Positions 3,445-63,727 of a DNA stretch of 64,000 bases are shown one piece after another. Numbering within the stretch: position 1 is the first letter of the stretch; the number at the start of each line of letters is the position of its first letter. The notes below the pieces were generated by a model. It had not been told where the DNA came from. It did not search any database and saw only the letters and a list, made by a program, of their open reading frames with translations. The stretch spans positions 12,749 through 76,748 of the forward strand of contig JBDRLN010000012.1 in assembly GCA_043812955.1 (NCBI GenBank), written 5' to 3'. The translations under genes and the position numbers were made by a program. The DNA is from Candidatus Omnitrophota bacterium. Its GTDB lineage: Bacteria > Omnitrophota > Gorgyraeia > Gygaellales > Profunditerraquicolaceae.

Positions 3445-3974
3445 TTATTCCGGCGTTTCATTTTTTTAATTTTTTCTCTACCCCTACCGCTACCTTTACC
3501 TTTACCAATACCTATACCTTTTCTTCCTTTTTTAATATCATTTTTACTTTTGGCAATCAATTTCTTAACAACCCCGGGAGCAATTTCTTTAAACGGCTCT
3601 AAAACAAAATTACGCTCGCAGATCCTTGGATGCGGCAGGCACAGCCCTTCCTCTTTAATACAAATATCCGAATAGGTCAAAATATCCAGATCAATGGTCC
3701 GCGGGGCATTAGGAATAGTGCGCACCCGGCCTAATAAAGATTCTATTTTTTGCAATTCTTGCAACAATTGATAAGGCAGAAGCTCGGTCTCAATCTCAAC
3801 CACTGCATTCAAATATTTCCCTTGCGGCGGACCGCCTTGAGGCTTAGTTTCAATTACCGACGAAATTTTAACTACCCGGGTAGAGGACAAAACCTTGATT
3901 TTTTTTATAGCGATATTGATATAGAATTGTCTTTCGCCCAGATTAGATCCGATAGCGATAAAACTAGTTACCAT
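3441..3974 (-). CDS. folK: 2-amino-4-hydroxy-6-hydroxymethyldihydropteridine pyrophosphokinase (HPPK) with Gly/Lys-rich C-terminal tail
   Basis: AIGSNLG...RTIDLDIL...LPHPR motifs of HPPK. The C-terminal KGRKGIGIGKGKGSGRGREK tail is encoded by a GGTAAA/GGTATA hexamer-repeat tract. Confidence 0.85.
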   Translation of the reverse strand: MVTSFIAIGSNLGERQFYINIAIKKIKVLSSTRVVKISSVIETKPQGGPPQGKYLNAVVEIETELLPYQLLQELQKIESLLGRVRTIPNAPRTIDLDILTYSDICIKEEGLCLPHPRICERNFVLEPFKEIAPGVVKKLIAKSKNDIKKGRKGIGIGKGKGSGRGREKIKKMKRRNK

Positions 3975-5948: not shown

Positions 5949-6066
5949 TTATTTCTCCCGAATTGATAAACAATAATATTATGTTTATATTACTAGGTAC
6001 AGGTATAGGAAAAGGTAAAGAAAAACTTTTCATTCTATACCTATACCTTTACCTCTACCTTCTCTA

Positions 6067-7796: not shown

Positions 7797-9047
7797 TCAT
7801 ATAATTTCCTTCATTATCAGATCCTGATAAGTATCTCTTCTTCTTATAACCCTAGATTTGTTTTTCCTGACCATTACTTCCGCAGCCTTCCGGCGGGAAT
7901 TATAGTTACTGGACATGCTAAAACCGTAAGCCCCGGCGCTCATTACCGCCAAGTAATCCCCGGCTTTTACACAAGGCAAAAGCCTGTCTTTGGCCAAGAA
8001 ATCACCGCTTTCACATATCGGCCCTACCACATCAACTTTTTCAACTTTACCTATACCTTTACCTATACCTTCCACTGGTAATATATTATGGTAGGCCTCA
8101 TATAGCGCTGGACGAATTAAATCATTCATCCCGGCATCAACTATGATAAATTTTTTTACCGGGGTGCCTTTAATATATAAAACTTTAGTAACTAGTATCC
8201 CGGCATTTCCAACAATAAACCTGCCCGGCTCAAAAATTATCTTCAGATTAATTTTCTTTAAAATGGGCAAAACCTTTGCGGCGAATTCCTGGGCCGTCTG
8301 AGGGGTCTCTTGATCATAAATAATCCCTAATCCTCCGCCCATATTCAAGAATTCTAACTTTACCCCGTTTCTTTGCAGGGCACTAATAAATGAAATAACC
8401 TTTTTTAAGGCTTGGACAAAAGGAGCTCCTTTAGTTATCTGCGAACCTATGTGCATATGTAAACCGCAGATATTTATATTTAAAAGTTTGCGCCTAAGCG
8501 ATAAAATCTTAGTGGCGTTATTTAAATCAATACCGAATTTATTGGTTATCTTGCCGGTGGTGATAAAATGATGCGTATTGGCCTCAACATCAGGATTAAT
8601 CCTAATCGCGACCTTGGTAATTTTATTTAATTTTTTAGCCACCCGGTTAATATTCTCCAGTTCAGGCAAAGATTCAACATTAAAAAGTAAAATTCCTTTT
8701 TTTATCGCTTCTTCAATTTCTCTGTCGGTTTTGCCTACCGAGGCGTATACTATTCTCTCCGGCGGGCATTTGGCCTTAAGCGCCCGGAACAGCTCTCCGC
8801 CGGAAACAATATCCAACCCGGCCCCTTTATCTACTAAGGCTTTTAATATAGCTAAATTTGAATTTGCTTTTACCGAATAGCAGATAATAGGCTTAATTTC
8901 CCGAAAAGCAGTTTTTAATTTTAAGAAATGGTCGATAAGAGTTTTATAGCTATAAACATAAAGCGGGGTGCCAAACTTTTCAGCCAAGTCCTTAACGTTT
9001 ACATTCTCGCAAAACAGTTTATTTTCTTGGTATTTAAATTCGTGCAT
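7797..9047 (-). CDS. lysA: diaminopimelate decarboxylase
   Basis: PLP fold-III decarboxylase: YSVKAN, HMHIGSQ, EPGRF, CESGD motifs; 416 aa. Confidence 0.9.
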   Translation of the reverse strand: MHEFKYQENKLFCENVNVKDLAEKFGTPLYVYSYKTLIDHFLKLKTAFREIKPIICYSVKANSNLAILKALVDKGAGLDIVSGGELFRALKAKCPPERIVYASVGKTDREIEEAIKKGILLFNVESLPELENINRVAKKLNKITKVAIRINPDVEANTHHFITTGKITNKFGIDLNNATKILSLRRKLLNINICGLHMHIGSQITKGAPFVQALKKVISFISALQRNGVKLEFLNMGGGLGIIYDQETPQTAQEFAAKVLPILKKINLKIIFEPGRFIVGNAGILVTKVLYIKGTPVKKFIIVDAGMNDLIRPALYEAYHNILPVEGIGKGIGKVEKVDVVGPICESGDFLAKDRLLPCVKAGDYLAVMSAGAYGFSMSSNYNSRRKAAEVMVRKNKSRVIRRRDTYQDLIMKEII

Positions 9048-10426: not shown

Positions 10427-10456
10427 CTTTACCTTTACCTTTACCTTTACCTTTAC
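10427..10456. repeat. hexanucleotide tandem repeat (CTTTAC)x5 immediately upstream of the argH ribosome-binding site
   Basis: ctttacctttacctttacctttacctttac read directly, between the argG stop and argH start. Confidence 0.8.
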
Positions 10457-11638
10457 CTATCTTTGATATGGCATGCCCCAGATCTTAATAAAGCCTTCCG
10501 CTAATCTCTGGTCAAACTTATCTTCTTTTCCGTAAGTGCTCAATTCTTTTTTATAAAGCGAGTGCGCTGATTTTCGGGAAACCGGCGCGCAAACCCCTTT
10601 GGTCAATTTCAGCTTTATAGAACCGCTCACATATTTCTGAGTAGAATCAATAAAATCATCTAAAGCCTGCTTTAATGGAGAATACCATAATCCATAATAA
10701 ACCAATTCCGAATATTTTAAGCCGATAATTTCCTTAAAATGAGCTGTCTCCCGGTCCAAGACCAGACTCTCTAATTCCCGGTGAGCAATATGTAGTATAG
10801 TAGCAGCAGGCGCTTCATAGATCTCCCGGGATTTAATACCGACCAGCCTATTTTCAACCAAATCCTGTCTGCCCACTCCATACGTTCCGCCAACGACATT
10901 TAAATGACTTATTAAGTCTTTTAGCTTGTAAATCTTTCCGTCTATTTTCTTAGGTTTACCTTTTTCAAAATAAACCTCAATATATTTAGGATAGGTTGTG
11001 CCTCCTGCGGGGCTTTTAGTAATCAAATATGCGTCTTCAGGAGGTTCCTGCTCTAAATTCTCCAATATTCCGGCCTCAATGCTTACTCCCCAGATGTTCC
11101 GATCAATGCTATAAGGTTTTTTCTTAGTTACATCAATAGGTATATTTTTGGCTTTAGCATACTCTATTTCTTCTTCCCGAGACTTGAATTCCCATTCCCT
11201 GACCGGAGCCAAGATCTTCAGTTTCGAATCCAATATTCCGGCAGTAACTTCAAGCCTGACCTGATCATTTCCTTTTCCAGTACATCCATGCGCGATGCTA
11301 TCTGCCTTCTCCTTATGGGCTATCTCAACCAGATATTTAGCAATTAAAGGCCGGCCTAAAGCTGTAGCCAAAAGGTATTTGCCTTCATAAATAGCATTGG
11401 CTTTTAAAGCTGGCATGATAAAATCCTCAACAAATTCATCCTGTAGATCCTTGATATAAACCTTAGAAGCTCCGGCTGCCAAAGCCCTCTCCTCGATCGC
11501 CTCAAAACTCTCGCCTTGGCCCAGGCCCTGCCCTAAATCCGCAACAAAACAGATAACATCATAGCCTTTATCCTTTAACCATCTGACTATACAAGAAGTA
11601 TCTAAACCGCCGGAGTAAGCCAATACTACTTTATTCAT
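10457..11638 (-). CDS. argG: argininosuccinate synthase
   Basis: VVLAYSGGLDTS PP-loop and the ArgG pattern; 393 aa. Confidence 0.9.
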   Translation of the reverse strand: MNKVVLAYSGGLDTSCIVRWLKDKGYDVICFVADLGQGLGQGESFEAIEERALAAGASKVYIKDLQDEFVEDFIMPALKANAIYEGKYLLATALGRPLIAKYLVEIAHKEKADSIAHGCTGKGNDQVRLEVTAGILDSKLKILAPVREWEFKSREEEIEYAKAKNIPIDVTKKKPYSIDRNIWGVSIEAGILENLEQEPPEDAYLITKSPAGGTTYPKYIEVYFEKGKPKKIDGKIYKLKDLISHLNVVGGTYGVGRQDLVENRLVGIKSREIYEAPAATILHIAHRELESLVLDRETAHFKEIIGLKYSELVYYGLWYSPLKQALDDFIDSTQKYVSGSIKLKLTKGVCAPVSRKSAHSLYKKELSTYGKEDKFDQRLAEGFIKIWGMPYQR

Positions 11639-11855: not shown

Positions 11856-12257
11856 TTACGGACAAGTCATTGCCGCACTTGGTTCTGCGTCACTACTATT
11901 AGTAAGATTAAAATACCTCTGGTCGCTGCTAAATCGCCTTGCCTGCACGCAACCGGAACTATAAACTGTATAGTTCCAATTTCGATTAGTATTATTGCTT
12001 AAGGAAACCGAAAGATTGTTATTGATTGCCATGATATCTGATACATTATTAATAGTAGAGTTAGGATAATACCTACCCATCTCCACAAAATATCCCTTTT
12101 GCGCTGACTGAAGTATTTTGAGGCTAGAAATAGCCTCTCTATCAGCTACCCTTTCAGTACTACCGGCAAAGTTCATCACGCTCAGGGTTGCCAGAATACT
12201 GATAATAACAAGAACAATATATAATTCTAAAAGAGTAAATCCTTTAGTATTCACCAT
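11856..12257 (-). CDS. prepilin-type N-terminal cleavage/methylation domain protein (type IV pilin / pseudopilin-like)
   Basis: KGFTLLELYIVLVIISILA is the class-III signal/N-methylation motif followed by a hydrophobic helix. Confidence 0.7.
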   Translation of the reverse strand: MVNTKGFTLLELYIVLVIISILATLSVMNFAGSTERVADREAISSLKILQSAQKGYFVEMGRYYPNSTINNVSDIMAINNNLSVSLSNNTNRNWNYTVYSSGCVQARRFSSDQRYFNLTNSSDAEPSAAMTCP

Positions 12258-13182
12258 TCCTCCATTTTAGTTTTAGTAATTTAATCAGTACTGCCTTTTG
12301 AATATGCATCCTGTTTTCCGCCTGATCAAATACTATAGAATTAGGACTATCCATGATCTCACTGGTAATTTCCAGGCCCCGGTGCGCTGGCAGACAATGC
12401 ATAATCAATGTCTTTTTTTTAGCTAACCTGACTAATTTACTATTCAGCTGAAATTCCTGGAAAATTTTCTGCCTTTTCTTAGTTTCTGACTCCTGGCCCA
12501 TACTTGCCCACACATCAGTATATATAACATCGGATCCCTTAACTGCTTCCCGCGGATTTAAAAAAAGCTTTATCTTAGATCCGGTCCTAGCGCCGGCATT
12601 TTTTGCCTCCCTAACAATAGCTGGATCAGGGGCATATCCTTTAGGCGTAGCGATATTCAAATTTAAACCTACCTTAGAAGCAGCATGCAGCAAAGAATGA
12701 CAAACGTTGTTTCCATCTCCTATATAAACTAAGGTTATACCTTTAAATTTAGAAAACTTCTCTTTAATAGTATAAATATCAGCTAACCCCTGACAAGGAT
12801 GGATAAGGTCAGACAGCCCATTAATTACCGGAACACTTGCATACCTAGCCATATCCAATAAACTCTTCTGGGCAAATGTCCTAAGGACTATCGCATCAAC
12901 ATACCGGCTTAGAGTCCTGGCCACATCCGGTATACTCTCCCTTACCCCTAATTTAATATGTTCAGGCCCGAGATATATCGAATTCCCTCCTAATTCATAC
13001 ATTCCTACCTGAAAAGAAACATAAGTTCTATTAGACGGCTTTTCAAATATCAAAGCCAGGGTTTTACCCTTAAGCGAATCATTAAATTTAGCTGGATCTT
13101 TTTTAAGCTCTGTGGTTAGTTCCAATATTTCATTAACCTCTTTGGTACTTAAATCGCTAATACAAATCAGGTCTTTTTTCAC
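12244..13182 (-). CDS. argF: ornithine carbamoyltransferase (GTG start)
   Basis: Carbamoyltransferase fold with the HCLPAHRGLE motif; the carbamoyl-phosphate motif appears as SNRTY. GTG start overlaps the TGA of the upstream mini-ORF. Confidence 0.85.
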   Translation of the reverse strand: MKKDLICISDLSTKEVNEILELTTELKKDPAKFNDSLKGKTLALIFEKPSNRTYVSFQVGMYELGGNSIYLGPEHIKLGVRESIPDVARTLSRYVDAIVLRTFAQKSLLDMARYASVPVINGLSDLIHPCQGLADIYTIKEKFSKFKGITLVYIGDGNNVCHSLLHAASKVGLNLNIATPKGYAPDPAIVREAKNAGARTGSKIKLFLNPREAVKGSDVIYTDVWASMGQESETKKRQKIFQEFQLNSKLVRLAKKKTLIMHCLPAHRGLEITSEIMDSPNSIVFDQAENRMHIQKAVLIKLLKLKWRNGEY

Positions 13183-14438
13183 CCCGCACCTTCTTTCCTA
13201 TTCATTATTCTAAAACCTGTCGCCTTTAAGTCATTTAATTTTTTGGAAGGTGCGGGGTCCGCGCCCCTTAAAACATTATCCAATATCTTAATCGCCTTAT
13301 TAATTTCTGTTTTACCTATATTTAAAGCCGGCATTAACCTTAATACCGTATCGTGGGTACAATTAATCAATAATCCCTGTTTTAGGCATTGCTCGACTAT
13401 TTCTCTTCCCTCCTGTTTTAATTCCAATCCCCACATTAAACCCATTCCCCTTATCTCCTTAATCAGAGGATATTTATCCTTAAGCTCCAGTAGTTTAGCC
13501 TGGAGATACTCACTCATCTTTAAAGTATTACGCAAGATCTTTTCCTTTTGTATTGACCTTAAAACCGCTACCGCTGCCTTGGCTACCAATGGCCCTCCGC
13601 CGAAAGTAGAAGCGTGAGTGCCCGGGCTAAGGCAATCGGAAATCTCTTTTTTTACCATCATAGCGCCAATAGGTAAACCCCCGCCTAAGGCCTTAGCCAT
13701 AGTAAAGATATCCGGGACAATCCCGTAATTCTGCCAGGCAAACATTTTACCGGTGCGCCCGATGCCAGTCTGAACCTCGTCAATTATCAAAAGAATATTT
13801 TCATCATCGCAAAGCTGCCGCAAATTCAGGATAAAACCCCGGGTAGCGATATTAATCCCGCCTTCACCCTGCACCAATTCCAGCATTATAGCCGCAGTCT
13901 TAGGGGTAAGCGCGCATTTTAGCGCTGAGAAATCATTAAATTTAACTGTCTTAAAACCCTCGGGCAGGGGCGCGAAGCCCTGCTGATATTTAGCCTGGCC
14001 TGTAGCTGCCAAAGCAGCCAGAGTCCTTCCATGAAAAGAATTTTCAAAAGTAATAACCTCATACTTGCCTTTGCCGAATTTACGGCTGAATTTTATTGCC
14101 GCCTCATTTGCCTCAGCCCCGGAATTGCAAAAAAAAGCCTTAAACGGATACTTGGTCCAATGATTTAATTCCCGGGCTAATTTTGCCTGGGGTAAATTAT
14201 AATAATTATTGGGCACAAAGATCAGTTTAGTAACCTGGTCTTTCACAGCTGACATCACCTTGGGATGGCAATGACCTAAATTACAGACCCCCCATCCGGG
14301 AAAAAAATCCAAATATTTATTTCCCTGGATATCCCAAAGAAAGCTGCCTTTTCCTTTAACAAATACTAGAGGCTGCTTGGTATAGGTGGGCATTACATAA
14401 TCTTTATAGATATTAAACACATCCTGGAGCTTGGTCAT
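13179..14438 (-). CDS. argD: acetylornithine aminotransferase
   Basis: Class-III PLP aminotransferase (FCNSGAEANEAAIK, DEVQTGIGRTG); 419 aa including a ~30-aa C-terminal extension encoded by the repeated intergenic element. Confidence 0.85.
   Translation of the reverse strand: MTKLQDVFNIYKDYVMPTYTKQPLVFVKGKGSFLWDIQGNKYLDFFPGWGVCNLGHCHPKVMSAVKDQVTKLIFVPNNYYNLPQAKLARELNHWTKYPFKAFFCNSGAEANEAAIKFSRKFGKGKYEVITFENSFHGRTLAALAATGQAKYQQGFAPLPEGFKTVKFNDFSALKCALTPKTAAIMLELVQGEGGINIATRGFILNLRQLCDDENILLIIDEVQTGIGRTGKMFAWQNYGIVPDIFTMAKALGGGLPIGAMMVKKEISDCLSPGTHASTFGGGPLVAKAAVAVLRSIQKEKILRNTLKMSEYLQAKLLELKDKYPLIKEIRGMGLMWGLELKQEGREIVEQCLKQGLLINCTHDTVLRLMPALNIGKTEINKAIKILDNVLRGADPAPSKKLNDLKATGFRIMNRKEGAG
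13183..13270 (-). promoter_or_regulatory. Conserved ~85-nt structured intergenic element, copy 1 (upstream of argF): 5' CCCCGCACCTTC pairs with 3' GAAGGTGCGGGG (the argF SD); contains mini-ORF MNRKEGAG whose TGA overlaps the argF GTG
   Basis: Near-identical copies at 16442-16517 and 56700-56769. The argD ORF reads through this element to its stop at 13179. Confidence 0.6.
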
Positions 14439-15304: not shown

Positions 15305-16441
15305 CTAGTTATAGGCTGCGTTGATCTTAATATACTCGGGGGTAAGGTCGCAGGTATAAACCGTCGAACCACAATTACCCGCAAAGAGATTAACCTTAAC
15401 CTCGATATCTTGCTTATCTAAAGGGCTTAAAAAAACTTTTAATCTATCTTCATTAAAACTTACTCCGGCCGCCCCAATGCCTGCCGCCACTCTGCCGAAA
15501 TTAGGATTTTCCCCGAAAATCGCGGTCTTAAATAAATTAGAATTTGCAATTGCCAAACCCGCCTGTTTGGCTTCCTTTTTGCTCCTGGCTCCAGTCACAT
15601 TAATCTTAATAAATTTAGTAGCCCCCTCGCCATCCCGGATTATCATCTTCGCTAATTCCAGGCAAACTAAGCTTAAAGCCTTAAGAAATAACTGGTAGCC
15701 AATCCCATCATTAATAAGTTTATTTTCAGCAGCCCCGTTAGCCAGAATGATCACGGTATCATTTGTACTCATACACCCGTCAACTGTAATGCAATTAAAA
15801 GAATCATCTACTGCCATCCTCAAGGCCTTATCCAGGCCGGGCTGGGTAATTAAAGCATCCGTAAATATAAACCCGAGCATTGTCGCCATATTCGGGGCGA
15901 TCATACCTGAACCTTTGGCAATACCGCAGATTTTTATCCGCTGGCGGCCGTAGCTAAACTCTAGAGTAACTTCTTTGGTAATGATATCCGTAGTCAGAAT
16001 CGCTAATTTAGCTTTTTCTATCCCCTTAGGCGTTAATCCGGCAATCAATTCCGGAATAAACTTTTTTATTTTATCCATAGGCAGCCTTTTACCGATAATT
16101 CCGGTAGAGGCCACCAATACACCCTCTTTTTTTAAACCCATTTCCCGGGATAATATCCGGGCAGTCTCCTGAGCATCCCTCAATCCTTGCGCACCGGTAA
16201 AACAATTGGCATTACCGCTGTTAACTATTATCGCCTGAAAAACCTTTTCTTGCTTAAGATGTCTTTGGTTTAATTTCAAGGGAGCAGCCTTAATTTTATT
16301 AGCGGTAACTACACAACTAGCCTTGGCCGGCACTAAAGAATAGAATAAGGCTAAATCCGGTTTCCCGGATCTTTTAATCCCCGCGCATAAACCATTAGCT
16401 TTAAAACCAATAGGTAAAATAGCTTTTTTAAAGATCTTCAC
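15305..16441 (-). CDS. argJ: bifunctional glutamate N-acetyltransferase / amino-acid acetyltransferase (GTG start)
   Basis: ArgJ autoproteolytic-site motif ATMLGFIFTDA; 378 aa. Confidence 0.9.
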   Translation of the reverse strand: MKIFKKAILPIGFKANGLCAGIKRSGKPDLALFYSLVPAKASCVVTANKIKAAPLKLNQRHLKQEKVFQAIIVNSGNANCFTGAQGLRDAQETARILSREMGLKKEGVLVASTGIIGKRLPMDKIKKFIPELIAGLTPKGIEKAKLAILTTDIITKEVTLEFSYGRQRIKICGIAKGSGMIAPNMATMLGFIFTDALITQPGLDKALRMAVDDSFNCITVDGCMSTNDTVIILANGAAENKLINDGIGYQLFLKALSLVCLELAKMIIRDGEGATKFIKINVTGARSKKEAKQAGLAIANSNLFKTAIFGENPNFGRVAAGIGAAGVSFNEDRLKVFLSPLDKQDIEVKVNLFAGNCGSTVYTCDLTPEYIKINAAYN

Positions 16442-16517
16442 CCTGCACCTTCTTTTATATTCATAATCTTAAAAACTTTCACCTCTAAATCATTTAATTT
16501 TTTAGAAGGTGCGGGGT
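16442..16517 (-). promoter_or_regulatory. Conserved ~85-nt structured intergenic element, copy 2 (argC stop to argJ start); mini-ORF MNIKEGAG with TGA overlapping the argJ GTG
   Basis: TGAACCCCGCACCTTCTAAAAAATTAAATGATTTAGAGGTGAAAGTTTTTAAGATTATGAATATAAAAGAAGGTGCAGGGTGAAG on the minus strand. Confidence 0.6.
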
Positions 16518-17543
16518 TCATTTTAACCCAGTCGTTTCGGACAAGCCATACATAATATTCATATTCTGGAGCGCCTGGCCGGAAGCCCCTTTGAGAAGAT
16601 TGTCAATTACCGCGATAATTATTATCTTATCGCCATCGTCTTTAACCGCGATATCGCAGAAATTCGTCCCTACCACATCTTTGAGCTTAGGAAAAACCCC
16701 TGCTTCTTTAATTCTTACGAAAGGTTCGTTTTTATAGAATTTCCTATATAGCTCTATTAAACTTTGCGCTTTGAGCTTTACGCTTTGAGCTTTATTAATA
16801 TATATAGTTTCCAAGATCCCTCTATTTAAAGGCAGAAGATGCGGCACAAAAGTAACCTCGATTTTCTTACCCGAAATCCGGGATAATTCCTGGTTGATTT
16901 CGGGTTTATGCTGATGGTTATTAATCTTGTAGGCTTTAAAATCCTCATTAATCTCCGAAAAAAGGAAATCCTCAGCGATTTTTCTGCCTGCGCCAGTTAC
17001 CCCGGATTTAGCGTCGATGATTATTGAGCCGCCTTCAATTAAATTCACGGCTAGAACAGGAGCTAAGGCTAAAATTGCCGCGGTCGGATAACACCCGGGG
17101 TTGGCGATTAATTTTGCTTTTTTAATCTTTATCCGGTAAATTTCAGGCAAGCCATAAACCGCTTCTTTTAGATATGTTTTATCTTTATGCTTAGTCTTAT
17201 AAAATTCTTCATAAACTGAAGTGCTTTTTAGCCTGTAATCAGCGCTTAAATCAATGACTTTCTTTCCGGCGGATAATAATCTCGGGACAACCTCCATAGA
17301 AACTGTATGCGGTAATGCCAAAAAAACCAGGTCGCATTTATCAGCAATTTCTTTTATATCAATCTCCTTGCAGACCAGGTCAAGTTTTTGTTTAAATTTA
17401 GGAAATATATCCGATATTATCCTGGGTTTATCTATTTTGGCATAGAGCCCGGATATCCTGACGTTAGGATGTTTTAAAAGCATCTCGATCAAGATTTCGC
17501 CGGCATAACCGGTTGCACCCACAATTCCCGCGTTTATCAACAT
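16518..17543 (-). CDS. argC: N-acetyl-gamma-glutamyl-phosphate reductase
   Basis: GIVGATGYAGE N-terminus and active-site Cys motif ANPGCYPTA; 341 aa. Confidence 0.9.
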   Translation of the reverse strand: MLINAGIVGATGYAGEILIEMLLKHPNVRISGLYAKIDKPRIISDIFPKFKQKLDLVCKEIDIKEIADKCDLVFLALPHTVSMEVVPRLLSAGKKVIDLSADYRLKSTSVYEEFYKTKHKDKTYLKEAVYGLPEIYRIKIKKAKLIANPGCYPTAAILALAPVLAVNLIEGGSIIIDAKSGVTGAGRKIAEDFLFSEINEDFKAYKINNHQHKPEINQELSRISGKKIEVTFVPHLLPLNRGILETIYINKAQSVKLKAQSLIELYRKFYKNEPFVRIKEAGVFPKLKDVVGTNFCDIAVKDDGDKIIIIAVIDNLLKGASGQALQNMNIMYGLSETTGLK

Positions 17544-17710: not shown

Positions 17711-17764
17711 AAATCTACCTGCAACCTATCCTACCTACTATCTACCTGCCTACCGGCAGGCAGG
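17711..17764. repeat. REP-like element: CTACCT short repeats plus palindrome CCTGCCTACCGGCAGGCAGG
   Basis: Read directly; same family as 5159-5234, 25486-25505, 43467-43486 and 58901-59037. Confidence 0.6.
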
Positions 17765-17785
17765 CTACCTACTACATACTGTCTT

Positions 17786-18652: not shown

Positions 18653-18673
18653 AAATATTTTTTTAAAATAATA

Positions 18674-18727
18674 GGGGACGTTTCTATTTTTCTGTTTATC
18701 TAAATATTGAAAAATAGAAACGTCCCC
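18674..18727. repeat. 54-bp perfect hairpin (GGGGACGTTTCTATTTTTC / 16-nt loop / GAAAAATAGAAACGTCCCC), copy A, 3' of the transporter gene; terminator-like on the minus strand
   Basis: Identical to copy B at 19904-19957; the two copies bracket the 18746..19894 gene. Confidence 0.8.
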
Positions 18728-18745
18728 TATTCGTCCCCTGTTAAC

Positions 18746-19894
18746 CTAGTTTATCTTATTGATCAGGAACAGGCACAAAAAACTAGTCACCGCGGAAAAT
18801 ACAATAAGCCATTGTAATCCTACGATGGGCAAAAGAAAAGCCCCGGAGAGATTGCTGGCGATCATAGCCAGATTGCTTATGCTGCACAAAAATGCAAATG
18901 AGGTTGCCTCTAATCCGGAAATTGTGTTTCTAGCCATAAAATCCATAACCATCAAAAATATAAACATCCCGATAAAATTATAGATAATATCATAAATAAC
19001 CGCGCTAACCGGCACATAATAAAGATAACTTAAAGTAGTAAACGCGCCCAGAAAAACGGAAAAATAAAGCCATTTGCGCATATTTATCTTCTGACTGAAT
19101 TTATAATACAATAATGACCCGATAATCCCGAAAACTGTACCTATAGTGCCTAACGTGCCGATCCAGACCTTATTCCACTTAAAAATATCTCTCTGGATAA
19201 AAAAAAGCGGAGTGCCGAAAGACGGCGAGAATTTGTAAAGAAAGATAAATAGGCCTACGATCATCAATTGTTTATGGCTGAATAATTTCTTTAAATCAGA
19301 AGAAAGCGTATTTTTAGAAGACGCCAGAACTGCGCGGTCCTCTCGGTAAAAAAAATTGATGATCCCGGCTAAAGCGTAAAATGGCAGTAAACAGAAGAAG
19401 GCTCTACGATAATCCCATCTCTGGGCAATATAACCGCCGCCTATGCCGGTGATTAGACCGGCTATTAATATAGAAACCCACTGGATGCTCTGGATCTTTC
19501 CGGTAATGCTTAATTTTTTTCCTTCCACGCACATTATCCCGTCAACAGATACATCCCTGAAAGCGGAATTCGTGGAACTTAAGACTAATAAAATAACTAA
19601 AGGAAGAATTGGCAAGGCAATAAGCCCTATGACCATAACCACAATTATATCCAAGCTCAATGAGATGAAAATCCAAACCTTTTTATTGAAAAACCTATCT
19701 ATTATATAACCTATTAATGGCTTAATCAGCCAGGCAGAAATCGTAACGCTGCTTAAGACCATTATTTTCTGGGGAGAAAAACCCAAGGTTTCTTTTAAAT
19801 AATAGAATATGCCCTGGGAAGGAAGGCCTTCAAATCCCTGGATAAAATAAACAATGCTGCTTAGGGCGTAGATAGAGAATATTTTTTTATTCAT
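18746..19894 (-). CDS. folate-biopterin transporter (FBT/BT1) family MFS permease
   Basis: N-terminal VYFIQGFEGLPSQGIFYYLKETLGFSP matches the FBT-family signature; ~12 predicted TM helices; 382 aa. Confidence 0.65.
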   Translation of the reverse strand: MNKKIFSIYALSSIVYFIQGFEGLPSQGIFYYLKETLGFSPQKIMVLSSVTISAWLIKPLIGYIIDRFFNKKVWIFISLSLDIIVVMVIGLIALPILPLVILLVLSSTNSAFRDVSVDGIMCVEGKKLSITGKIQSIQWVSILIAGLITGIGGGYIAQRWDYRRAFFCLLPFYALAGIINFFYREDRAVLASSKNTLSSDLKKLFSHKQLMIVGLFIFLYKFSPSFGTPLFFIQRDIFKWNKVWIGTLGTIGTVFGIIGSLLYYKFSQKINMRKWLYFSVFLGAFTTLSYLYYVPVSAVIYDIIYNFIGMFIFLMVMDFMARNTISGLEATSFAFLCSISNLAMIASNLSGAFLLPIVGLQWLIVFSAVTSFLCLFLINKIN

Positions 19895-19903
19895 AAATAA
19901 ATG

Positions 19904-19957
19904 GGGGACGTTTCTATTTTTCTGTTTATCTAAATATTGAAAAATAGAAACGTCCCC
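19904..19957. repeat. 54-bp perfect hairpin, copy B, between the secG stop and the transporter start (9 nt upstream of its ATG)
   Basis: Sequence identical to 18674-18727. Confidence 0.8.
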
Positions 19958-19962
19958 TAGTT

Positions 19963-22275: not shown

Positions 22276-22382
22276 TCCACCCTACCCATTCCACCCCGTA
22301 GGTGGGCTCCACCCCGTAGGTGGGCTCCACCTACGGGGTGGACATGAAGGTTTAATATAGCCTAATTTAGCTTATTTGTCAA
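22276..22382 (-). promoter_or_regulatory. pgk promoter region: consensus promoter (TTGACA-17-TATATT) followed by three tandem 15-bp sites CCACCCCGTAGGTGG separated by GCT (third copy inverted); putative repressor operator array
   Basis: Sites at 22291-22305, 22309-22323 and 22327-22341 with a degenerate fourth upstream. The same motif occurs at 55600-55632 (gap) and 63695-63727 (DegT unit). Confidence 0.6.
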
Positions 22383-25110: not shown

Positions 25111-25482
25111 TTACTTCGCACTGTTATCCGCGCCTATCTTAACATCTGTTTCTCTTTTTATCTTTTCGCAATAATAGACGTCTTCGGAAACGTCAATATT
25201 ATTATTGTGCCCCTGTTCTTTTAACTTAAAAATGGCATCTGAAAGATAAGATTCTGCGGTGGCATAAGATTCTTTCGCTTGGAATGGCGTTGAAGAACAT
25301 TCTGCCTTGTCTAGCCAATCTATGGCTTTTCTATAGCTCACATTCGCCTCTGCCAGCTTGGGATTATGAGATAGTTCTCTGCGGTATGGTGTCCCACACG
25401 TAGCACAAGAGCTAAGTGCAATAACGACAATTCCTAAAACCAAGATACTAAATCCTCTGATATATTTCTTCATCACATTCAC
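25111..25482 (-). CDS. hypothetical lipoprotein (signal peptide + lipobox LSSC)
   Basis: MKKYIRGFSILVLGIVVIALSSCAT... N-terminus; no domain recognised. Confidence 0.55.
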   Translation of the reverse strand: MNVMKKYIRGFSILVLGIVVIALSSCATCGTPYRRELSHNPKLAEANVSYRKAIDWLDKAECSSTPFQAKESYATAESYLSDAIFKLKEQGHNNNIDVSEDVYYCEKIKRETDVKIGADNSAK

Positions 25483-25485
25483 CTC

Positions 25486-25505
25486 CCTGCCTGCCGGCAG
25501 GCAGG
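25486..25505. repeat. perfect 20-bp palindrome CCTGCCTGCCGGCAGGCAGG immediately upstream of the lipoprotein SD
   Basis: Minus strand reads CCTGCCTGCCGGCAGGCAGGGAGGTGAATGTGATG. Confidence 0.7.
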
Positions 25506-25519
25506 CTTTACACCGTTTT

Positions 25520-43454: not shown

Positions 43455-43466
43455 GTTCGTTTCCTC

Positions 43467-43486
43467 CCTGCCTGCCGACAGGCAGG
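43467..43486. repeat. 20-bp palindrome CCTGCCTGCCGACAGGCAGG immediately upstream of the SD of the YeaQ-family gene
   Basis: Minus strand: CCTGCCTGTCGGCAGGCAGGGAGGAAACGAACATG. Confidence 0.7.
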
Positions 43487-43517
43487 CTTTTTGTTGTTAC
43501 CTGTTACCGTTTTTTAT

Positions 43518-55577: not shown

Positions 55578-55599
55578 TCTACTCCTCCTTAACCTATCT

Positions 55600-55632
55600 C
55601 CACCCCGTAGGTGGGCTCCACCTACGGGGTGG
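55600..55632 (-). promoter_or_regulatory. two 15-bp sites CCACCCCGTAGGTGG-GCT-CCACCTACGGGGTGG (perfect hairpin) 10 nt upstream of the gap Shine-Dalgarno sequence; putative operator
   Basis: Read directly; the same motif is found upstream of pgk (22291-22341) and of the DegT gene (63695-63727). Confidence 0.6.
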
Positions 55633-55648
55633 AATTATGGTTGATATA

Positions 55649-56653
55649 TTAACTAACTTTTTCCTCTCTTATGAATTTTGCCGCTAATTCCGGCGGAGTA
55701 GGCACCAGATAAAAACCAGTACCCCATTCAAATCCCGCAACTTTAGTTAACTTCGGCATAAACTCCAGATGCCAGTGATAACCTTCCATTTCGCCATCGC
55801 CGTTAATAGGCGCGCTGTGAATAATAAAATTATAAGCTATATTTCCGAAAATCTTTTTCACCCTGGAGATCAACTCCTTGACGATCTCTGCTAACGCCGG
55901 AATTTCCTCCATAGACATATGGCAGAAATATTTATTATGTGCCTTGGGGATAACCCAGACCTCAAAAGGAAAACGCGAAACAAAAGGGCAAAAAGCCAGA
56001 AAATATTTATTTTCTATGACTATCCTCTCCTTCTCCTGAACTTCCTGGCGGATAACATCGCAGAATATGCACCTATCCCGGTATTCAAAATATTTACGCG
56101 CCCCCATAATCTCTTCCTTGACATTCTTGGGCACCATTGGTAAAGCAATTAATTGAGTATGTGGATGCTCCAACGAAGCCCCGGCAGCCGGGCCGTAATT
56201 CTTAAACACCATCACATATTTAAAACGGCTGTCCCGAATCAGGTCCAAGGCCCGGACGCAGCACAACGAAAAGATATTCTCGACTTCATTATTTAATAAA
56301 TCCGGTATATCCTTATGGTGGTAGGGAGAATCGATGATAACTTCATGAGCGCCTACGCCATTAGACATATCGTAAATACCCAAGCCTCTTCGGTCCAAAT
56401 CTCCCTCGATCTGAAGCGCAGGATATTTATTCGAAACCACCCTGGTAAGCCATCCGGGGGTATCAGGGGAAGTTCCGGATTCGCGGATCGCGATTATTTC
56501 CGGAGGGGTCTGGGATTCATTGCCGTAGCAAAAAGGGCAAACCCCATCTCTCCAGGCCGGAGATTCAATATCATAATCTTTAGGCAGATTAGGATGGTCA
56601 GTATCCACTATTACCCACCTGCCGGCGATCGGATCTCTTCTTAATTCTGACAT
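55649..56653 (-). CDS. galactose-1-phosphate uridylyltransferase (GalT/HIT branch III) family nucleotidyltransferase with intact H-P-H motif
   Basis: Zn site CPFCYGNE; catalytic GASLEHPHTQLIALP; 334 aa. Confidence 0.7.
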   Translation of the reverse strand: MSELRRDPIAGRWVIVDTDHPNLPKDYDIESPAWRDGVCPFCYGNESQTPPEIIAIRESGTSPDTPGWLTRVVSNKYPALQIEGDLDRRGLGIYDMSNGVGAHEVIIDSPYHHKDIPDLLNNEVENIFSLCCVRALDLIRDSRFKYVMVFKNYGPAAGASLEHPHTQLIALPMVPKNVKEEIMGARKYFEYRDRCIFCDVIRQEVQEKERIVIENKYFLAFCPFVSRFPFEVWVIPKAHNKYFCHMSMEEIPALAEIVKELISRVKKIFGNIAYNFIIHSAPINGDGEMEGYHWHLEFMPKLTKVAGFEWGTGFYLVPTPPELAAKFIREEKVS

Positions 56654-56699
56654 TAACGAGCGCCTCTATTCATTATGTTACGAGTTAACCCAACACCTT

Positions 56700-56769
56700 C
56701 TTTATTATTCATAATTCTAAAACCATTCGTCTTAAAGCCATTTAATCTTCCAGAAGGTGCTGAGTAGAT
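56700..56769 (-). promoter_or_regulatory. Conserved ~85-nt structured intergenic element, copy 3 (between the two GalT-like genes); mini-ORF MNNKEGVGLTRNIMNRGAR whose TAA overlaps the downstream ATG
   Basis: GCACCTTCTGGAAGATTAAATGGCTTTAAGACGAATGGTTTTAGAATTATGAATAATAAAGAAGGTGTTGGG on the minus strand; compare copies 1 and 2. Confidence 0.55.
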
Positions 56770-57810
56770 CTATCCTCCCTTGGAGGATATCTCTACTTCT
56801 CTTAAAAATTTAGCCGAACTCTCCGGTGGCACCGGACAGATATAAAAACCCGTTCCCCATTCAAACCCGGCTACCCGGGTCAGGCGGGGAGTAATCTCTA
56901 TATGCCAATGATAATCTTCTTCAATACTCTTCCAGTATCCCATCTTTTTCCTACGGAACGGCGCTGTATGCACAATGTAATTATAGGGCGGGTCATTTAA
57001 ACCTGTTTTTATCTTCAATAAAACTTGTTTTAATATCCGGGCTAAATTTTTCCTCTCTTGATCATCTAACCGGACAAAATCGCAGCTATGTTTCTTGGGC
57101 AGAATCCAGACTTCAAAAGGAAACCGAGAAGCAAAAGGAACTACGGCAATAAAACCGTCGATCTCCAGGATCAACCGGTCTTTTGACTCTAATTCCTGCT
57201 TGACTAAATCACAGAAAACGCACCTTTCATGATGGTCATAATATTCTTTTGCGCCCACTAATTCTTCTTTTACCCGTTTGGGATTAATCGGGGTAGCAAT
57301 TAACTGGGTCCGGGAATGCCTGACCTTTCCTCCGCCGGCAGACCAGCCATAGTTCTTAAATACTAAAACATACTTAAAGCGTTCGTCTTTTTCCAGGTCA
57401 ACGATCCGGTCGATATAACAGGCAATAACCCGTTTGATCTGTTCTTCAGGCAGATCGCAGATATTAGCCATATGTTGGTTGGTTTCAACGACTATCTCAT
57501 GGGCGCCGACACCGTTCATCAAGTCGTATAAACCCTTGCCGGTCCGGTCAAGTTCTCCCTCAATCCTCAAAAATGGGGTAAGACTAGGCACAACCCGCAA
57601 TTCCCATCCCGGGGTATTAGAAGGAGTATGGGTTGGCCTTATCGAATATATTTCATTGGGAGTTTCCAATTCCTTGCCCGGACAAAAAGGGCAGGGTTTT
57701 TCAACAGGCCCTTCCTGGGCAAAGTTAGTTAACTGATCCGGCCTTTTAGCCCGTTCAGTAGCAATAATTACCCAGCGTCCGATAATAGGATCTTTTCTTA
57801 ATTCCGGCAT
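56770..57810 (-). CDS. GalT-family paralog with the catalytic H-P-H replaced by H-S-R (probably non-catalytic or altered function)
   Basis: Zn site CPFCPGKE conserved, but the active-site region reads GGGKVRHSRTQLIATP; 346 aa. ~40% identity to the upstream paralog. Confidence 0.65.
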   Translation of the reverse strand: MPELRKDPIIGRWVIIATERAKRPDQLTNFAQEGPVEKPCPFCPGKELETPNEIYSIRPTHTPSNTPGWELRVVPSLTPFLRIEGELDRTGKGLYDLMNGVGAHEIVVETNQHMANICDLPEEQIKRVIACYIDRIVDLEKDERFKYVLVFKNYGWSAGGGKVRHSRTQLIATPINPKRVKEELVGAKEYYDHHERCVFCDLVKQELESKDRLILEIDGFIAVVPFASRFPFEVWILPKKHSCDFVRLDDQERKNLARILKQVLLKIKTGLNDPPYNYIVHTAPFRRKKMGYWKSIEEDYHWHIEITPRLTRVAGFEWGTGFYICPVPPESSAKFLREVEISSKGG

Positions 57811-58900: not shown

Positions 58901-59037
58901 GTAGGTAGTAGATAGTAGTTAGTATATAGGGTTTCCCCTATTACCTACCTACTCCATACTACCTACTGATTTAGTAAATAATAGTTATTATATAGGGTTT
59001 TCCCTGATACCTACCTGCTATCTACTACCTGCTGTAT
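58901..59037. repeat. intergenic block of GGTAGTAG / CCTACCTAC short repeats with a ~30-bp direct repeat (TATATAGGGTTTCCCCTATTACCTACCT x2)
   Basis: Read directly; same CCTACCT-type motif family as 5190-5234 and 17711-17745. Confidence 0.6.
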
Positions 59038-60888
59038 TTAAACTGGATCTATATCTACCGTAACTATTATACCCGAATGTTTAAAACCTTTTAAGTTTAT
59101 TTTTAAAAACTTAACTATTCCCTTAGGGTCATCCGAACTTAAAAGCACCTGCCAATAATAATTCCCTCTGAGTTTAGGATGGACTCCGGGACTGACCGAT
59201 ATTACCTTGGTCCCCTTTTTATTTTTAATTCTATTTAATTTATCGAATAAAATATGGGCGGATTCTTTTACCTTATTTTCTTTTTTACCTCTCAGCCTTA
59301 CCGCCCCCAGATGTTTGTAGGGCGCAAGCCCGAGAGGCTTTCTTTGTTTTAACTCTTCAGCATAAAAAATATCCGGATTACCGGTTTCAATAGCTTTGAA
59401 AACATGATGGGTTGGGTACCCGGTTTGGATTATTATCAATTTATCGGTTAATTCGCTTAAACCCGCCAGAATAGAAAATGTCTTTTCTGAGCTCCGGAAA
59501 TCAAAATGATTCAGGGAATTATCTATAGCTAATACCCCGACTAGATCAAACTTAAAAGCAGTATGCCTGATGATATCCTGGGTGGAGATAAAAATATCTG
59601 CTGATTGAATATCAATATCATTGCCGGCCTCCACTAACTTTATCCTGGCCTGGGGGAATATCCGGGAGAGCTCGCTTTCTATTTTCTCTGTCCCGATACC
59701 ACAGTAACGTATATAGCCGGAATTGCACTCCGGACAGATCTTAGGAGGCGATTCCAGCTTAAAATTACAGTAGTTGCAACTTAATAGGTTTTCTTTAAAA
59801 TGGAATACCAGACTAATATTGCAACGCGGGCATTTTAAAGCCTTACCGCAATGACGGCAGGCGACAAAAGTAGCAAAACCTTTACGGTTTAAAAATATCA
59901 AAACTTTCCCCTGCCTAGCCAAGACTTCAAGTATAGAATCCTGCAAATAACGGGTTAATAGGATATCTCCCTTTTTACTAACCGCGGGAAAATCTTTAAT
60001 ATTCATTATTTTTACTTCCGGCATTCCGCCCCTACGGATAATAGGTTCATACTTTAATCTGCCCTGTCTGGAAAAATATATACTCTCTAACGAAGGAGTC
60101 GAACTACCCAAAACAACATCTGCTTTTTCAATTGCGCCGCGCATAAAAGCTACTTCCCGGGCATTATAATGGGGCGCCTGATCCTGTTTATATGCATAAT
60201 CCTGCTCTTTATCAATGATTATCAAGCCTAAATCCGGCGTGGGCGCGAAAACTGCTGACCGGGTACCCGTAATAACAGTCATCCCGCCTTTTTTTAGCTT
60301 AATCCATTCCCCCAGTTCATCCGGCTGTTTGCGATACATGACACCAACCGGCATATTTAATCTTGAACTGATAAGGTCCCTGGTTTTTAATACAGTTTCG
60401 ATATCCGGCAATATTACGATCACCGACTTATTTATTGCTAAAACATCCTTTATCCGCTCAATATATCTATCCCAACGCGCGCTATTATCCAGACCAAGGA
60501 TCAGGGTATTGCTAGGCTTACAATCAGCACTGGGATTTTTTCTATCAATAGATCCTGCTATAAGGGCTTTTTTCCCTTTGCGCAAACCATCAGGAATAGC
60601 AGTCTCAATCGCCTCTCCCCAGGAACAGGAATAATATTCGGACAATTCCTTGGAAAGCCTAAGCAAATTTTCATCCAGGACAGGATAATCGTCGATAATT
60701 TCCAGGATGGGTTTAATATTGCGGATATTGCTTTTTAAATTAACCCCCACTACATATCCGATCATCCGTTTAGGGCCGAAAGAAACCTTAACCCTTTTTC
60801 CGATCTTTATTTGCCCGGTTAATCCTTGGGGAACCAGATAATCAAACGGGCCATCCAGAGGCAGCCCAAATACTACTTTAGCATACAT
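59038..60888 (-). CDS. priA: primosomal protein N' (PriA) homolog with degenerate Walker A and B motifs
   Basis: N-terminal 3'-DNA-binding domain (VVFGLPLDGPFDYLVP...IGYVVGV) and Cys-rich zinc-binding region (CRHCGKALKCPRCN...CNYCNF...CPECNS) are present. The helicase motif I position reads ILGLDNSARW and motif II reads IIIDKEQDY instead of GxGKT and DEEH. Confidence 0.8.
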   Translation of the reverse strand: MYAKVVFGLPLDGPFDYLVPQGLTGQIKIGKRVKVSFGPKRMIGYVVGVNLKSNIRNIKPILEIIDDYPVLDENLLRLSKELSEYYSCSWGEAIETAIPDGLRKGKKALIAGSIDRKNPSADCKPSNTLILGLDNSARWDRYIERIKDVLAINKSVIVILPDIETVLKTRDLISSRLNMPVGVMYRKQPDELGEWIKLKKGGMTVITGTRSAVFAPTPDLGLIIIDKEQDYAYKQDQAPHYNAREVAFMRGAIEKADVVLGSSTPSLESIYFSRQGRLKYEPIIRRGGMPEVKIMNIKDFPAVSKKGDILLTRYLQDSILEVLARQGKVLIFLNRKGFATFVACRHCGKALKCPRCNISLVFHFKENLLSCNYCNFKLESPPKICPECNSGYIRYCGIGTEKIESELSRIFPQARIKLVEAGNDIDIQSADIFISTQDIIRHTAFKFDLVGVLAIDNSLNHFDFRSSEKTFSILAGLSELTDKLIIIQTGYPTHHVFKAIETGNPDIFYAEELKQRKPLGLAPYKHLGAVRLRGKKENKVKESAHILFDKLNRIKNKKGTKVISVSPGVHPKLRGNYYWQVLLSSDDPKGIVKFLKINLKGFKHSGIIVTVDIDPV

Positions 60889-61982
60889 AATTTACAAATC
60901 TCCTGCGCTGCATCAGGCTTCCTGATCTTTTGAATATTACCGCGCAAAAGATCAACCCTCTGGCGGTTATTTTTCAAATCCATAACTATATCCCGGATAT
61001 CCTCGAGTCTCCTGGCCTGCCAGGCGCATCCGCTCCTTACCAATACTTCGGAATTCCCGCTCTCCTGCCCGGGTATACCGTCAATAAATATCAAAGGAAT
61101 CTGCATTACCAGGCTTTCGGAAATACTTAAACCCCCGGGCTTAGTAATCAAAAGGCTGGCTTTAGACATCAACTCCGGCATCTGGTCAGTAAAACCCAGC
61201 AAAGTTACATTAGAATAGTTTTTCTTTTTTAACCGCTTAAACAAAAATTTATTTCTACCGCAGACTATAGTCATTTTAACTTCATTATGCAGCATATCCG
61301 CTATATCTTCCATCAGCATAAAGCCCAATGAGCCGGTAGCCAGCAGAACCCTGAATTCCCCTTCTGCCGCGCTATTTTCTTTACCCATATCTCTACCTAT
61401 ACCTATACCTATACCTCTACCTTTACCTAGATCGACAAATTGCTTATCTACCGGTATGCCTAAAACCTTGATCTTGGCCTCATCCACTCCCCGGCGCAAT
61501 AAATCCCGGACAGTATAATCACAGGCTACAACATAATTATCGCATTTAGAAGTTATCCAAATAGGATGGGCCCGGAAATCGGTAATTACAGTTACTAACC
61601 GCGACGAGATCTTATTCTTAAGTTTAAGGCACGAGGCTATAAAGGGGGGCAGAAAATGAGTGGATAAGATAACGTCCGGATTTTCCCGGATAAGATAATT
61701 TACAAACCTCTGGCTGTGTACCAGAGAAATAAATTGAAAAATACCGCGGACAAAAGTATAAGAGCTTAAATAATAAAGGGCCATCCAGATAAATTTCAGA
61801 TAGATGGCCAGGATACTATAACCCACGCTATAGAAATAAGTAAAGACCGGATTATTAAATTGTAATATATCCAAAACTTCAACTTTAACATCCGGATATT
61901 TATCCTTAAAGCCGGCTGACAAAGCAATGGCTGCGGCGCGATGGCCTCCGCCTGCCGAAGCATGGACGATTAGTATTTTCAT
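60873..61982 (-). CDS. MGDG-synthase-like / UgtP-type diacylglycerol glycosyltransferase (GT28) with an internal hexamer-repeat-encoded Gly/Ile linker
   Basis: N-terminal ILIVHASAGGGHRAAAIAL (MGDG_synth motif) and C-terminal GT28 domain (LITKPGGLSISESL). An internal GKGRGIGIGIGRDMGK segment is encoded by (GGTATA)n at 61385-61430. Confidence 0.75.
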   Translation of the reverse strand: MKILIVHASAGGGHRAAAIALSAGFKDKYPDVKVEVLDILQFNNPVFTYFYSVGYSILAIYLKFIWMALYYLSSYTFVRGIFQFISLVHSQRFVNYLIRENPDVILSTHFLPPFIASCLKLKNKISSRLVTVITDFRAHPIWITSKCDNYVVACDYTVRDLLRRGVDEAKIKVLGIPVDKQFVDLGKGRGIGIGIGRDMGKENSAAEGEFRVLLATGSLGFMLMEDIADMLHNEVKMTIVCGRNKFLFKRLKKKNYSNVTLLGFTDQMPELMSKASLLITKPGGLSISESLVMQIPLIFIDGIPGQESGNSEVLVRSGCAWQARRLEDIRDIVMDLKNNRQRVDLLRGNIQKIRKPDAAQEICKLCMLK

Positions 61983-63672: not shown

Positions 63673-63694
63673 TCTTAATCCTTTCTACCTTCCT

Positions 63695-63727
63695 CCACCT
63701 ACGGGGTGGAGCCCACCTACGGGGTGG
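63695..63727 (-). promoter_or_regulatory. two direct 15-bp sites CCACCTACGGGGTGG-AGC-CCACCTACGGGGTGG immediately upstream of the SD of the DegT aminotransferase gene
   Basis: Minus strand: CCACCCCGTAGGTGGGCTCCACCCCGTAGGTGGAGGAAGGTAGAAAGGATTAAGAGTG. Confidence 0.55.

Follow-up and report, generated by a model that had tools for sequence, protein, structure and literature searches.

Palindromic repeats that are translated in frame within protein genes are best known from Rickettsia (PMC10969869). As summarized in that source, the Rickettsia palindromic elements (RPEs; Ogata et al. 2000, 2002, via PMC10969869) are short palindromes of about 100–150 nt that lie in frame in unrelated protein genes, inside folded domains, where the host protein tolerates the conserved peptide that they contribute; they are also insertion-polymorphic between related genomes. 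[quoted passage not shown] Here, we analyze a 64,000-nt stretch of DNA from a Candidatus Omnitrophota bacterium (GCA_043812955.1, contig JBDRLN010000012.1, positions 12,749 to 76,748 of the forward strand; hereafter, the window), which contains three copies of a 78-nt palindromic repeat. These copies probably represent a non-autonomous, coding-compatible, MITE-like insertion element of Omnitrophota. Comparison of related loci shows its apparent insertion at the ends of coding sequences, either beside them or just within them, with copies found at unrelated genes of unrelated genomes. The element is not an arginine-sensing regulator, and it probably keeps the next gene translated.

Among the systems compared, RPEs and intragenic ERIC-type MITEs appear to be the nearest analogues (PMC10969869). 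Like RPEs, the element lies in frame in unrelated genes, namely argD and the leader of a gspJ-like gene, with its peptide conserved, and it is present or absent between related genomes. The likeness is one of behavior and not of family membership; moreover, the element is shorter, belongs to another phylum, and has its copies at the extreme ends of coding sequences or at stop/start junctions, unlike the domain-internal RPEs described in that source. Another difference is that its 3′ end also supplies a Shine–Dalgarno (SD)-like motif and rebuilds a start codon. With MITEs it shares its small size without a transposase gene, the terminal inverted repeats, the presence/absence polymorphism, the co-transcription with flanking genes, the long mRNA hairpin, and the fusion of some copies to host ORFs (PMC10969869). 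In contrast to MITEs, however, no consistent target-site duplication and no parent insertion sequence (IS) were found, very few copies are known, its length is strictly conserved, and its substitutions are coding-like. The three copies and the arms of the first are located as follows, with minus denoting the gene strand.

13181–13258, minus strand: copy c1, fused in frame to the argD 3′ end and abutting the argF start (97.5 bits, −27.9 kcal/mol, z −5.7)
13245–13258, minus strand: 5′ arm of c1, ACCCCGCACCTTCC, element columns 1–14
13181–13194, minus strand: 3′ arm of c1, ..GAAGGTGCGGGGT, which includes the SD-like GAAGGTG as well as bases 1 and 2 of the argF GTG
16440–16517, minus strand: copy c2, inserted in the argC/argJ stop–start junction (94.7 bits)
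56688–56765, minus strand: copy c3, between two tandem GalT/HIT-like paralogues, 4 nt past the upstream TAG stop (93.5 bits)

A preliminary description of this DNA had already recognized the three copies, the boundaries of which we refined to those given above. Each is exactly 78 nt long, and the three align without gaps at 76–85% pairwise identity. A 19-nt core pattern matches three times in the window, a number reached in 0 of 100 dinucleotide shuffles, and a 12-nt arm matches five times versus 0.19 expected. A covariance model (R1) was built from six long-form copies: the three in the window, the orthologues c1′ (argD/argF) and c2′ (argC/argJ) in L004, a contig of the closest relative (GCA_043800815.1), and one copy in L001, another Omnitrophota metagenome-assembled genome (MAG). 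The model scores the window copies at 93–97 bits, and a scan of the 64-kb window with it returned no long-form copy beyond these three. No Rfam family reached its gathering score over the whole window, and only chance-level matches, at E values up to 10, were seen around c1.

The element folds into an outer stem of 13–14 bp formed by its terminal inverted arms (ACCCCGCACCTTC...GAAGGTGCGGGGT; 95% of the helix 1 cells are paired) and an inner stem, weaker and rich in G-U pairs, in which part of an internal ATG is paired. As anticipated in the preliminary description, all three window copies fold well, with minimum free energies of −24 to −29 kcal/mol and z-scores of −4.5 to −5.7, values equalled by 0 of 200 shuffles. 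The sense strand folds better than the antisense strand in 6 of 6 copies (for c3, −28.5 versus −9.35 kcal/mol). The arms had been quoted as complementary in every copy. This is exactly true for c1, whereas c2 has one C·A mismatch (GAAGGTGCAGGG) and the arms of c3 differ in sequence (CTCAGCACCTTC / GAAGGTGTTGGG); they nevertheless pair, the outer stem being kept by one compensatory A-U and two G-U pairs, so that c3 folds on the sense strand only. The 3′ arm indeed carries GAAGGTG, an SD-like motif of the kind used by other genes in the window, 5–6 nt ahead of a GTG start that overlaps a TGA stop. Both GAAGGTG and GTG are buried in a stem of −24 to −33 kcal/mol.

The genes and reading frames surrounding the two copies in the arg operon are listed below.

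16518–17543, minus strand: argC, its stop TGA directly 5′ of c2
16438–16521, minus strand: 27-codon ORF through c2, MNPAPSKKLNDLEVKVFKIMNIKEGAG followed by a stop; its ATG overlaps the argC TGA (ATGA) and its TGA overlaps the argJ GTG (GTGA)
16438–16464, minus strand: internal mini-ORF of c2, MNIKEGAG followed by a stop
15305–16441, minus strand: argJ, starting with GTG at a codon that is ATG in relatives
13179–14438, minus strand: argD (acetylornithine aminotransferase); its Pfam domain ends at residue 390 and its first in-frame stop is the TGA at 13181–13179
13179–13205, minus strand: internal mini-ORF of c1, MNRKEGAG followed by a stop, in the argD frame; its ATG is not kept in the L004 orthologue
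12244–13182, minus strand: argF (ornithine carbamoyltransferase), its GTG start overlapping the TGA (GTGA); relatives have ATG at the same codon

Comparison of this operon with that of related genomes bears on how the copies arose. L004 is syntenic with the window and has both arg copies at the same positions. At argC/argJ, the element is found only in the window and L004, where the junction reads ATGA, 78 nt, and TGA; in L005, L029, L030, and L033, the two genes overlap directly by the 4 nt ATGA, without any element, and L034 and L036 have a spacer of 18–21 nt, likewise without it. The argJ GTG in the window consists of the last G of the element plus TG and stands at the exact codon where the relatives carry ATG, as does the GTG of argF. 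The argD/argF junction is bare (ATGA or TGATG) in three relatives, with L033 and L034 reading ATGAAAAAAGA and L036 reading TGATGAAAAAAGA. In L030, this junction contains a 123-nt block that starts with ATGA followed by ACCCCGCACCTTTG and ends with GAAGGTGAGGAG followed by TGAAAAAAGA, and in L029, it contains a 38-nt hairpin with the same arms as the element, into which argD reads. Since L030 is filled whereas L033, with an ArgD 83% identical to that of L030, is empty, the argD/argF junction has been hit more than once, apparently at least twice independently and probably three times. Together, the filled and empty sites show the element to be an apparent insertion that is presence/absence polymorphic at orthologous positions. 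For each of its independent long-form insertions, an upstream coding sequence either ends at most about 4 nt before the element or has the element just inside its end, and every long form is sense-oriented.

Hairpins with the same arms (CCCGCACCTT / AAGGTGCGGG) and different, shorter interiors were found in L029 (11177–11214, 38 nt), L030 (11180–11243, 64 nt), and L034 (6671–6723, 53 nt). The L034 hairpin, located between rpsI and argC, has TTTT after it, giving it the appearance of a terminator. The arms may therefore define a wider family than the 78-nt form.

A pattern scan of 185,579 species genomes (one per species) yielded one further long-form copy, the one in L001, the locus of which was also recovered from two Logan runs (L007 and L008). 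This L001/L007 copy scores 96.5 bits and lies in frame in the prepilin leader of a gspJ-like gene, which reads MLSAKLNNR-(25 aa)-FTLIELL. The L006 orthologue (67% identical) has the same ATG and reads MLFIRQKNRGG/FTLVELL, with no element. Because L006 keeps the upstream ATG without the 75 nt, the element was inserted in the L001 gene, which explains why MNRKEGAG looks like a prepilin leader. The element is the only DNA common to L001/L007 and the window, and among 84 proteins retrieved with the L001 gspJ-like query, only P0121 and P0122, both from L001's own locus, contain the element peptide.

The resemblance to prepilin leaders also raises the converse idea, that the copies are relics of prepilin gene 5′ ends (a promoter-proximal untranslated region plus an MNRKEGAG leader) left after deletion of, or recombination at, a pilin gene. 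In L001, the mini-ORF continues as MNRKEGAG/FTLIELL, a perfect prepilin cleavage motif, and a pilin-like gene follows argF in the window. However, the continuation from Gly into F/M-T-L-I-E occurs in L001 alone, while the window mini-ORFs stop at or soon after the Gly; in addition, the 78-nt boundaries are identical in all copies. The ordinary leaders of gspJ orthologues and the empty L006 site led us to reject this idea, which we regard as extremely improbable. A likeness between the 3′ flank of c3, TTAACTCGT, and the FTL codons of L001 was taken as chance (6 of 9 positions match, and the codons are host gspJ sequence in L001).

Unrelated in-frame insertions of 20–40 residues occur in the prepilin leaders of the Omnitrophota GspJ-like proteins P0126, P0139, P0142, P0167, P0181, P0186, and P0200, some of them of low complexity (QTGNRQ or NPxTR repeats), and the cleaved prepilin leader seems to be a general safe harbor for insertions. 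The window also encodes a 133-aa prepilin-type protein (PF07963 N_methyl; MVNTKG/FTLLELY) at 11856–12257 on the minus strand, between argF and argG and with a 14-nt overlap with the argF 3′ end; the gene is present in L004 (5650–6045) and absent from the arg operons of L005, L029, L030, L033, L034, and L036.

Each copy is also open to translation, a feature overlooked in the preliminary description, in which only the mini-ORF was noted. The mini-ORF frame is free of stops across the whole element in 6 of 6 copies, and the other two sense frames have 1–4 stops each. This 26-codon open frame is the sole ORF of the element; on the antisense strand, exactly one frame is open in every copy. At c1, the open sense frame is continuous with argD. 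The encoded ArgD has 419 residues, of which residues 393–419 (ADPAPSKKLNDLKATGFRIMNRKEGAG) form a 27-residue tail encoded by the element. It had been suggested that argD is artificially extended through c1; there is, however, no in-frame stop before 13179–13181, so the tail is not an ORF-calling artefact. Among the best ArgD matches, the tail is common to P0001 alone (90% identical, 419 aa, GCA_043800815.1), and it evolves like coding sequence. The other best matches, all from Omnitrophota, are mostly 389–399 aa long, with five reaching 404–417 aa by way of unrelated tails. The window as a whole has an Omnitrophota-like gene content. Judged by its sequence, the tail is real, and so is the 419-aa ArgD. 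In three other Omnitrophota ArgD sequences (P0033, P0084, and P0087), the 3′ end of the gene runs into a different repeat, giving tails ..LPVGTCKGQSPFGD.. or ..LPVGTVPEGDCP.., and the argD end has been repeatedly invaded by different elements. The 27-codon ORF architecture across c2 is also found in L004.

The third copy is set between the following features.

56770–57810, minus strand: GalT/HIT-like paralogue upstream of c3
56653–56712, minus strand: mini-ORF of c3, 19 codons, MNNKEGVGLTRNIMNRGAR followed by a stop; its TAA and the ATG of the next gene overlap (TAATG)
55649–56653, minus strand: GalT/HIT-like gene downstream of c3

Between c3 and the start of the GalT-like gene, positions 56654–56687 on the minus strand (ATAATGAATAGAGGCGCTCGTTAATG) resemble a decayed 3′ half of the element (ATAATGAATAGgaaagaAGGtGCgggGTGA), hinting at an older insertion there.

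These frames bear on the interpretation put forward in the preliminary description, according to which the repeat is a host-evolved cis-regulatory leader: a MNxKEGAG peptide with a rare Arg or Ile codon would control the SD-sequestering hairpin and thereby exert arginine-dependent attenuation or translational control in the arg operon. Two of the copies do precede arg genes, the SD-like motif and the GTG start are covered by the hairpin, and the stop of the mini-ORF overlaps the next start codon as described, through GTGA at argF and argJ and TAATG at the GalT-like gene. The 8-codon mini-ORF itself was found in c1 and c2, but that of c3 has 19 codons (56712–56653). Moreover, the third codon, noted there as rare before argF and argJ, reads AGG, ATA, AAT, AGA, AAG, and AAG across the six copies, none of which has more than a single Arg codon. 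The internal ATG has become ATA in the argD/argF copy of L004, yet the full open frame is kept. The hairpin is single and internal to the operon, with no U-tract terminator after it, and a GalT-like gene and the prepilin leader of a gspJ-like gene have copies as well. Finally, the same operon lacks the element at argC/argJ in six relatives and has a bare argD/argF junction in three. Neither of the features of an amino-acid attenuator, conserved cognate codons and an alternative terminator/antiterminator at the operon head, is present. The leader interpretation is largely refuted, and we consider it very unlikely. What remains of it is the anatomy: a strong hairpin with an SD-like motif and a GTG overlapping a TGA makes translational coupling a reasonable consequence, while the arginine-specific control by a leader peptide is lost.

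Substitution patterns allow the constraint on the element to be compared with that on its surroundings. Between the window and L004, the 4-fold synonymous sites of eight flanking genes are 53% identical, versus 78–79% for the orthologous element pairs (arms about 90%, interior 72%). The six copies contain no indels. The argJ–argB spacer measures 15 nt in the window versus 120 nt in L004, so neighboring non-coding DNA does change length. The pooled ratio of non-synonymous to synonymous differences (pN/pS) is 0.49 in the open sense frame versus 1.11 and 1.16 in the other two; for the two orthologous pairs, pS is 0.40 versus a pN of 0.16 (Fisher p = 0.007), and in the interior of c1/c1′, the values are 0.79 and 0.18. 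The arms, by contrast to the interior, are nearly unchanged at both synonymous and non-synonymous sites. We read this pattern as that of a translated frame with extra constraint on the arms; in the alignments, length, arms, and open frame are conserved well above the neutral rate. Concerted evolution by gene conversion was rejected as the source of this conservation: orthologues are no closer than paralogues, and within-genome pairs are not homogenized, being no more alike than between-genome pairs.

The constraint on the arms would also be expected of a domesticated mRNA element, such as a REP-like stabilizer, a site of processing, or a hairpin that makes ribosomes pause where the upstream cistron ends; the element would set the expression ratio of the neighboring genes, and its translation would be incidental. 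Such an element could account for the almost invariant arms, for the folding specific to the sense strand with its G-U pairs, for the position of every copy within a few nucleotides of the upstream stop codon, and for the same-arm hairpins with different interiors in L029, L030, and the terminator-like L034. It fits less well with the interior, where the changes are coding-like and not structure-like, as seen for c1/c1′, or with a covariation that is not significant. We judge it unlikely, although REP-like action on the mRNA is still a live rival.

The repetitive extragenic palindromic (REP) sequences and BIMEs of enterobacteria are palindromic units located just after stop codons in operons, from where they can influence how stable the mRNA is and how the upstream gene is translated. 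REPs measure 20–40 nt, occur strictly outside genes, number in the hundreds, and are associated with RAYT transposases. A small REP/BIME-like mobile element was the other option considered in the preliminary description, and of the ideas offered there it comes closest to the comparative data: the element is likewise palindromic and located at stop codons within operons, and the window holds further palindromic families at gene ends. The element nevertheless differs from REPs and BIMEs proper, as it has 78 nt and is predicted to be translated in c1, c2, and L001, and no RAYT was seen in the 64-kb window.

The coding-like interior could alternatively reflect selection on a functional peptide module of 25–27 residues (PAPSKKLNDLKxxGFRIMNxKEGAG) that would tag ArgD, form a free micro-protein at argC/argJ, or belong to a leader. 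The excess of synonymous change is frame-specific, the frame is open in all copies, and c2 has its own ATG and stop in both the window and L004. The three contexts are however incompatible with one another, the peptide being a C-terminal tail in one, free in another, and part of a cleaved leader in the third, and the 5′ part of both the L001 copy and c3 is probably untranslated from a nearby start. A pN/pS of about 0.5 denotes weak constraint, and a protein search with the four element peptides concatenated returned nothing at E ≤ 10, although a 25-residue match is underpowered against 5.8 billion sequences. We find a peptide module improbable.

If the copies are instead those of a MITE-like insertion element, a mechanism can be proposed for their persistence. 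Surviving copies would be those that leave host expression intact, because ribosomes would read through the element. Entering from argD (c1), from a captured ATG (c2), or from a host or internal ATG (L001 and c3), the ribosomes would melt the stem and terminate at the stop overlapping the next start. At argD/argF, the in-frame fusion would give ArgD its 27-residue tail, and the ribosomes translating it would stop at the TGA overlapping the argF GTG. At argC/argJ, the ATG that once started argJ (in ATGA) would now open the 27-codon ORF that ends in GTGA at argJ, and in L001, the element would sit in a prepilin leader that is cleaved off. The terminal G of the element together with the adjoining TGA would rebuild a start codon at the old position, and with GAAGGTG and GTG locked in the hairpin, the downstream gene would be translated mainly via coupling to the unwinding ribosomes.

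Classical coupling through an SD-sequestering hairpin is known from phage MS2 and ribosomal-protein operons. The element likewise combines stop/start overlaps (GTGA, ATGA) with a downstream SD motif and start codon held in a stable stem, through which the upstream frame is predicted to run. In contrast to those systems, the device would here be brought by an inserted repeat and not evolved in place, with its function deduced from sequence.

More speculatively, the element could be a selfish palindrome adapted to the stop/start overlaps (ATGA) of tightly packed operons. It would target the region of the stop codon, present a stop-free frame in either orientation, turn its last G and the TGA into a GTG, and provide an SD motif from its 3′ arm. 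Insertion would then be nearly neutral, and the element could be kept as a portable coupling cassette with its peptide under purifying selection. We put this forward tentatively, as a possibility less likely than not.

Several observations weigh against a MITE-like insertion element. The main weakness is that only four independent long-form insertions are available (c1, c2, c3, and L001). The strict DNA pattern gave a single long-form copy in the 185,579 genomes and none in 241 million metagenome records, where two chance matches inside unrelated genes were obtained, so the family may be small. No parent IS or transposase, and no IS bounded by the element ends (CCCCGCACCTTC), was seen in the Omnitrophota DNA examined. 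Target-site duplications are inconsistent, with TGA(A) on both sides at c2/c2′ and L030, on one side at c1, and on neither side at c3 or L001; TGA on both sides, as in c2 and L030, fits a 3-bp duplication or microhomology. Covariation, which the preliminary description had proposed as a check on the stem, is not significant over the six sequences (three double changes, with 79 of 500 shuffles as good). The conservation at orthologous sites argues for a host-level role, for which a purely selfish element would have no need. The third copy is not obviously needed for coupling because the gene downstream of it has its own GAGG, and no antisense insertion was found among the copies, though the antisense frame is also open.

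Further searches added little to the family. A covariance-model search of about 225 kb of Omnitrophota DNA returned no long-form copy beyond the six, and within it, 14.7 kb from the closest relative together with about 134 kb covering the arg loci of six more distant relatives contributed only the two L004 orthologues and the three short variants. A pattern scan of viral sequences gave 20 chance hairpins, none of which fits the covariance model. Exact-match look-ups of ArgF and the GalT-like protein from the window returned no record. An integron attC site was considered and dropped, as the 3′ ends do not, by eye, fit GTTRRRY. Such repeats are not mentioned in a recent survey of complete Omnitrophota genomes.

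If the copies are indeed insertions of this kind, in-frame translated palindromic repeats would also occur in a candidate phylum whose members are free-living or predatory and have compact genomes. They would illustrate a concrete route by which a mobile element can enter a 4-nt gene overlap without polar damage, namely by regenerating the start and allowing coupling through the hairpin. For annotation, the GTG starts of argF and argJ would be products of insertion, and small ORFs at such junctions should not be taken for amino-acid attenuators. The locus would also offer a compact natural case for gauging the coupling enforced by a stem of −25 to −33 kcal/mol.

The genome to which the window belongs is rich in intergenic palindromes. 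A 51-nt hairpin, AACCCCGCCCTTTTGG...CCAAAAGGGCGGGGTT, at 965–1015 of the window is intergenic and looks like a bidirectional terminator; it has only the ACCCCGC start in common with the element and scores 25.8 bits with R1. Other palindromic repeat families at gene ends comprise CTCCACCCCGTAGGTGGG units (22289–22342, 55598–55633, and 63693–63728), GGGGACGTTTCTATTT...AAATAGAAACGTCCCC (18664–18729 and 19894–19959), CCTGCCTGCCGGCAGGCAGG (17741–17768, 25482–25509, and 43463–43490), and a 66-nt tandem pair (58906–59040). Finally, hexamer arrays of 4–8 units, (GTAAAG)n or (TAGGTA)n on the gene strand, occupy spacers directly upstream of minus-strand genes, for example that between argG and argH; they lie at 3491–3521, 6038–6061, 8045–8071, 10427–10458, and 61382–61429.

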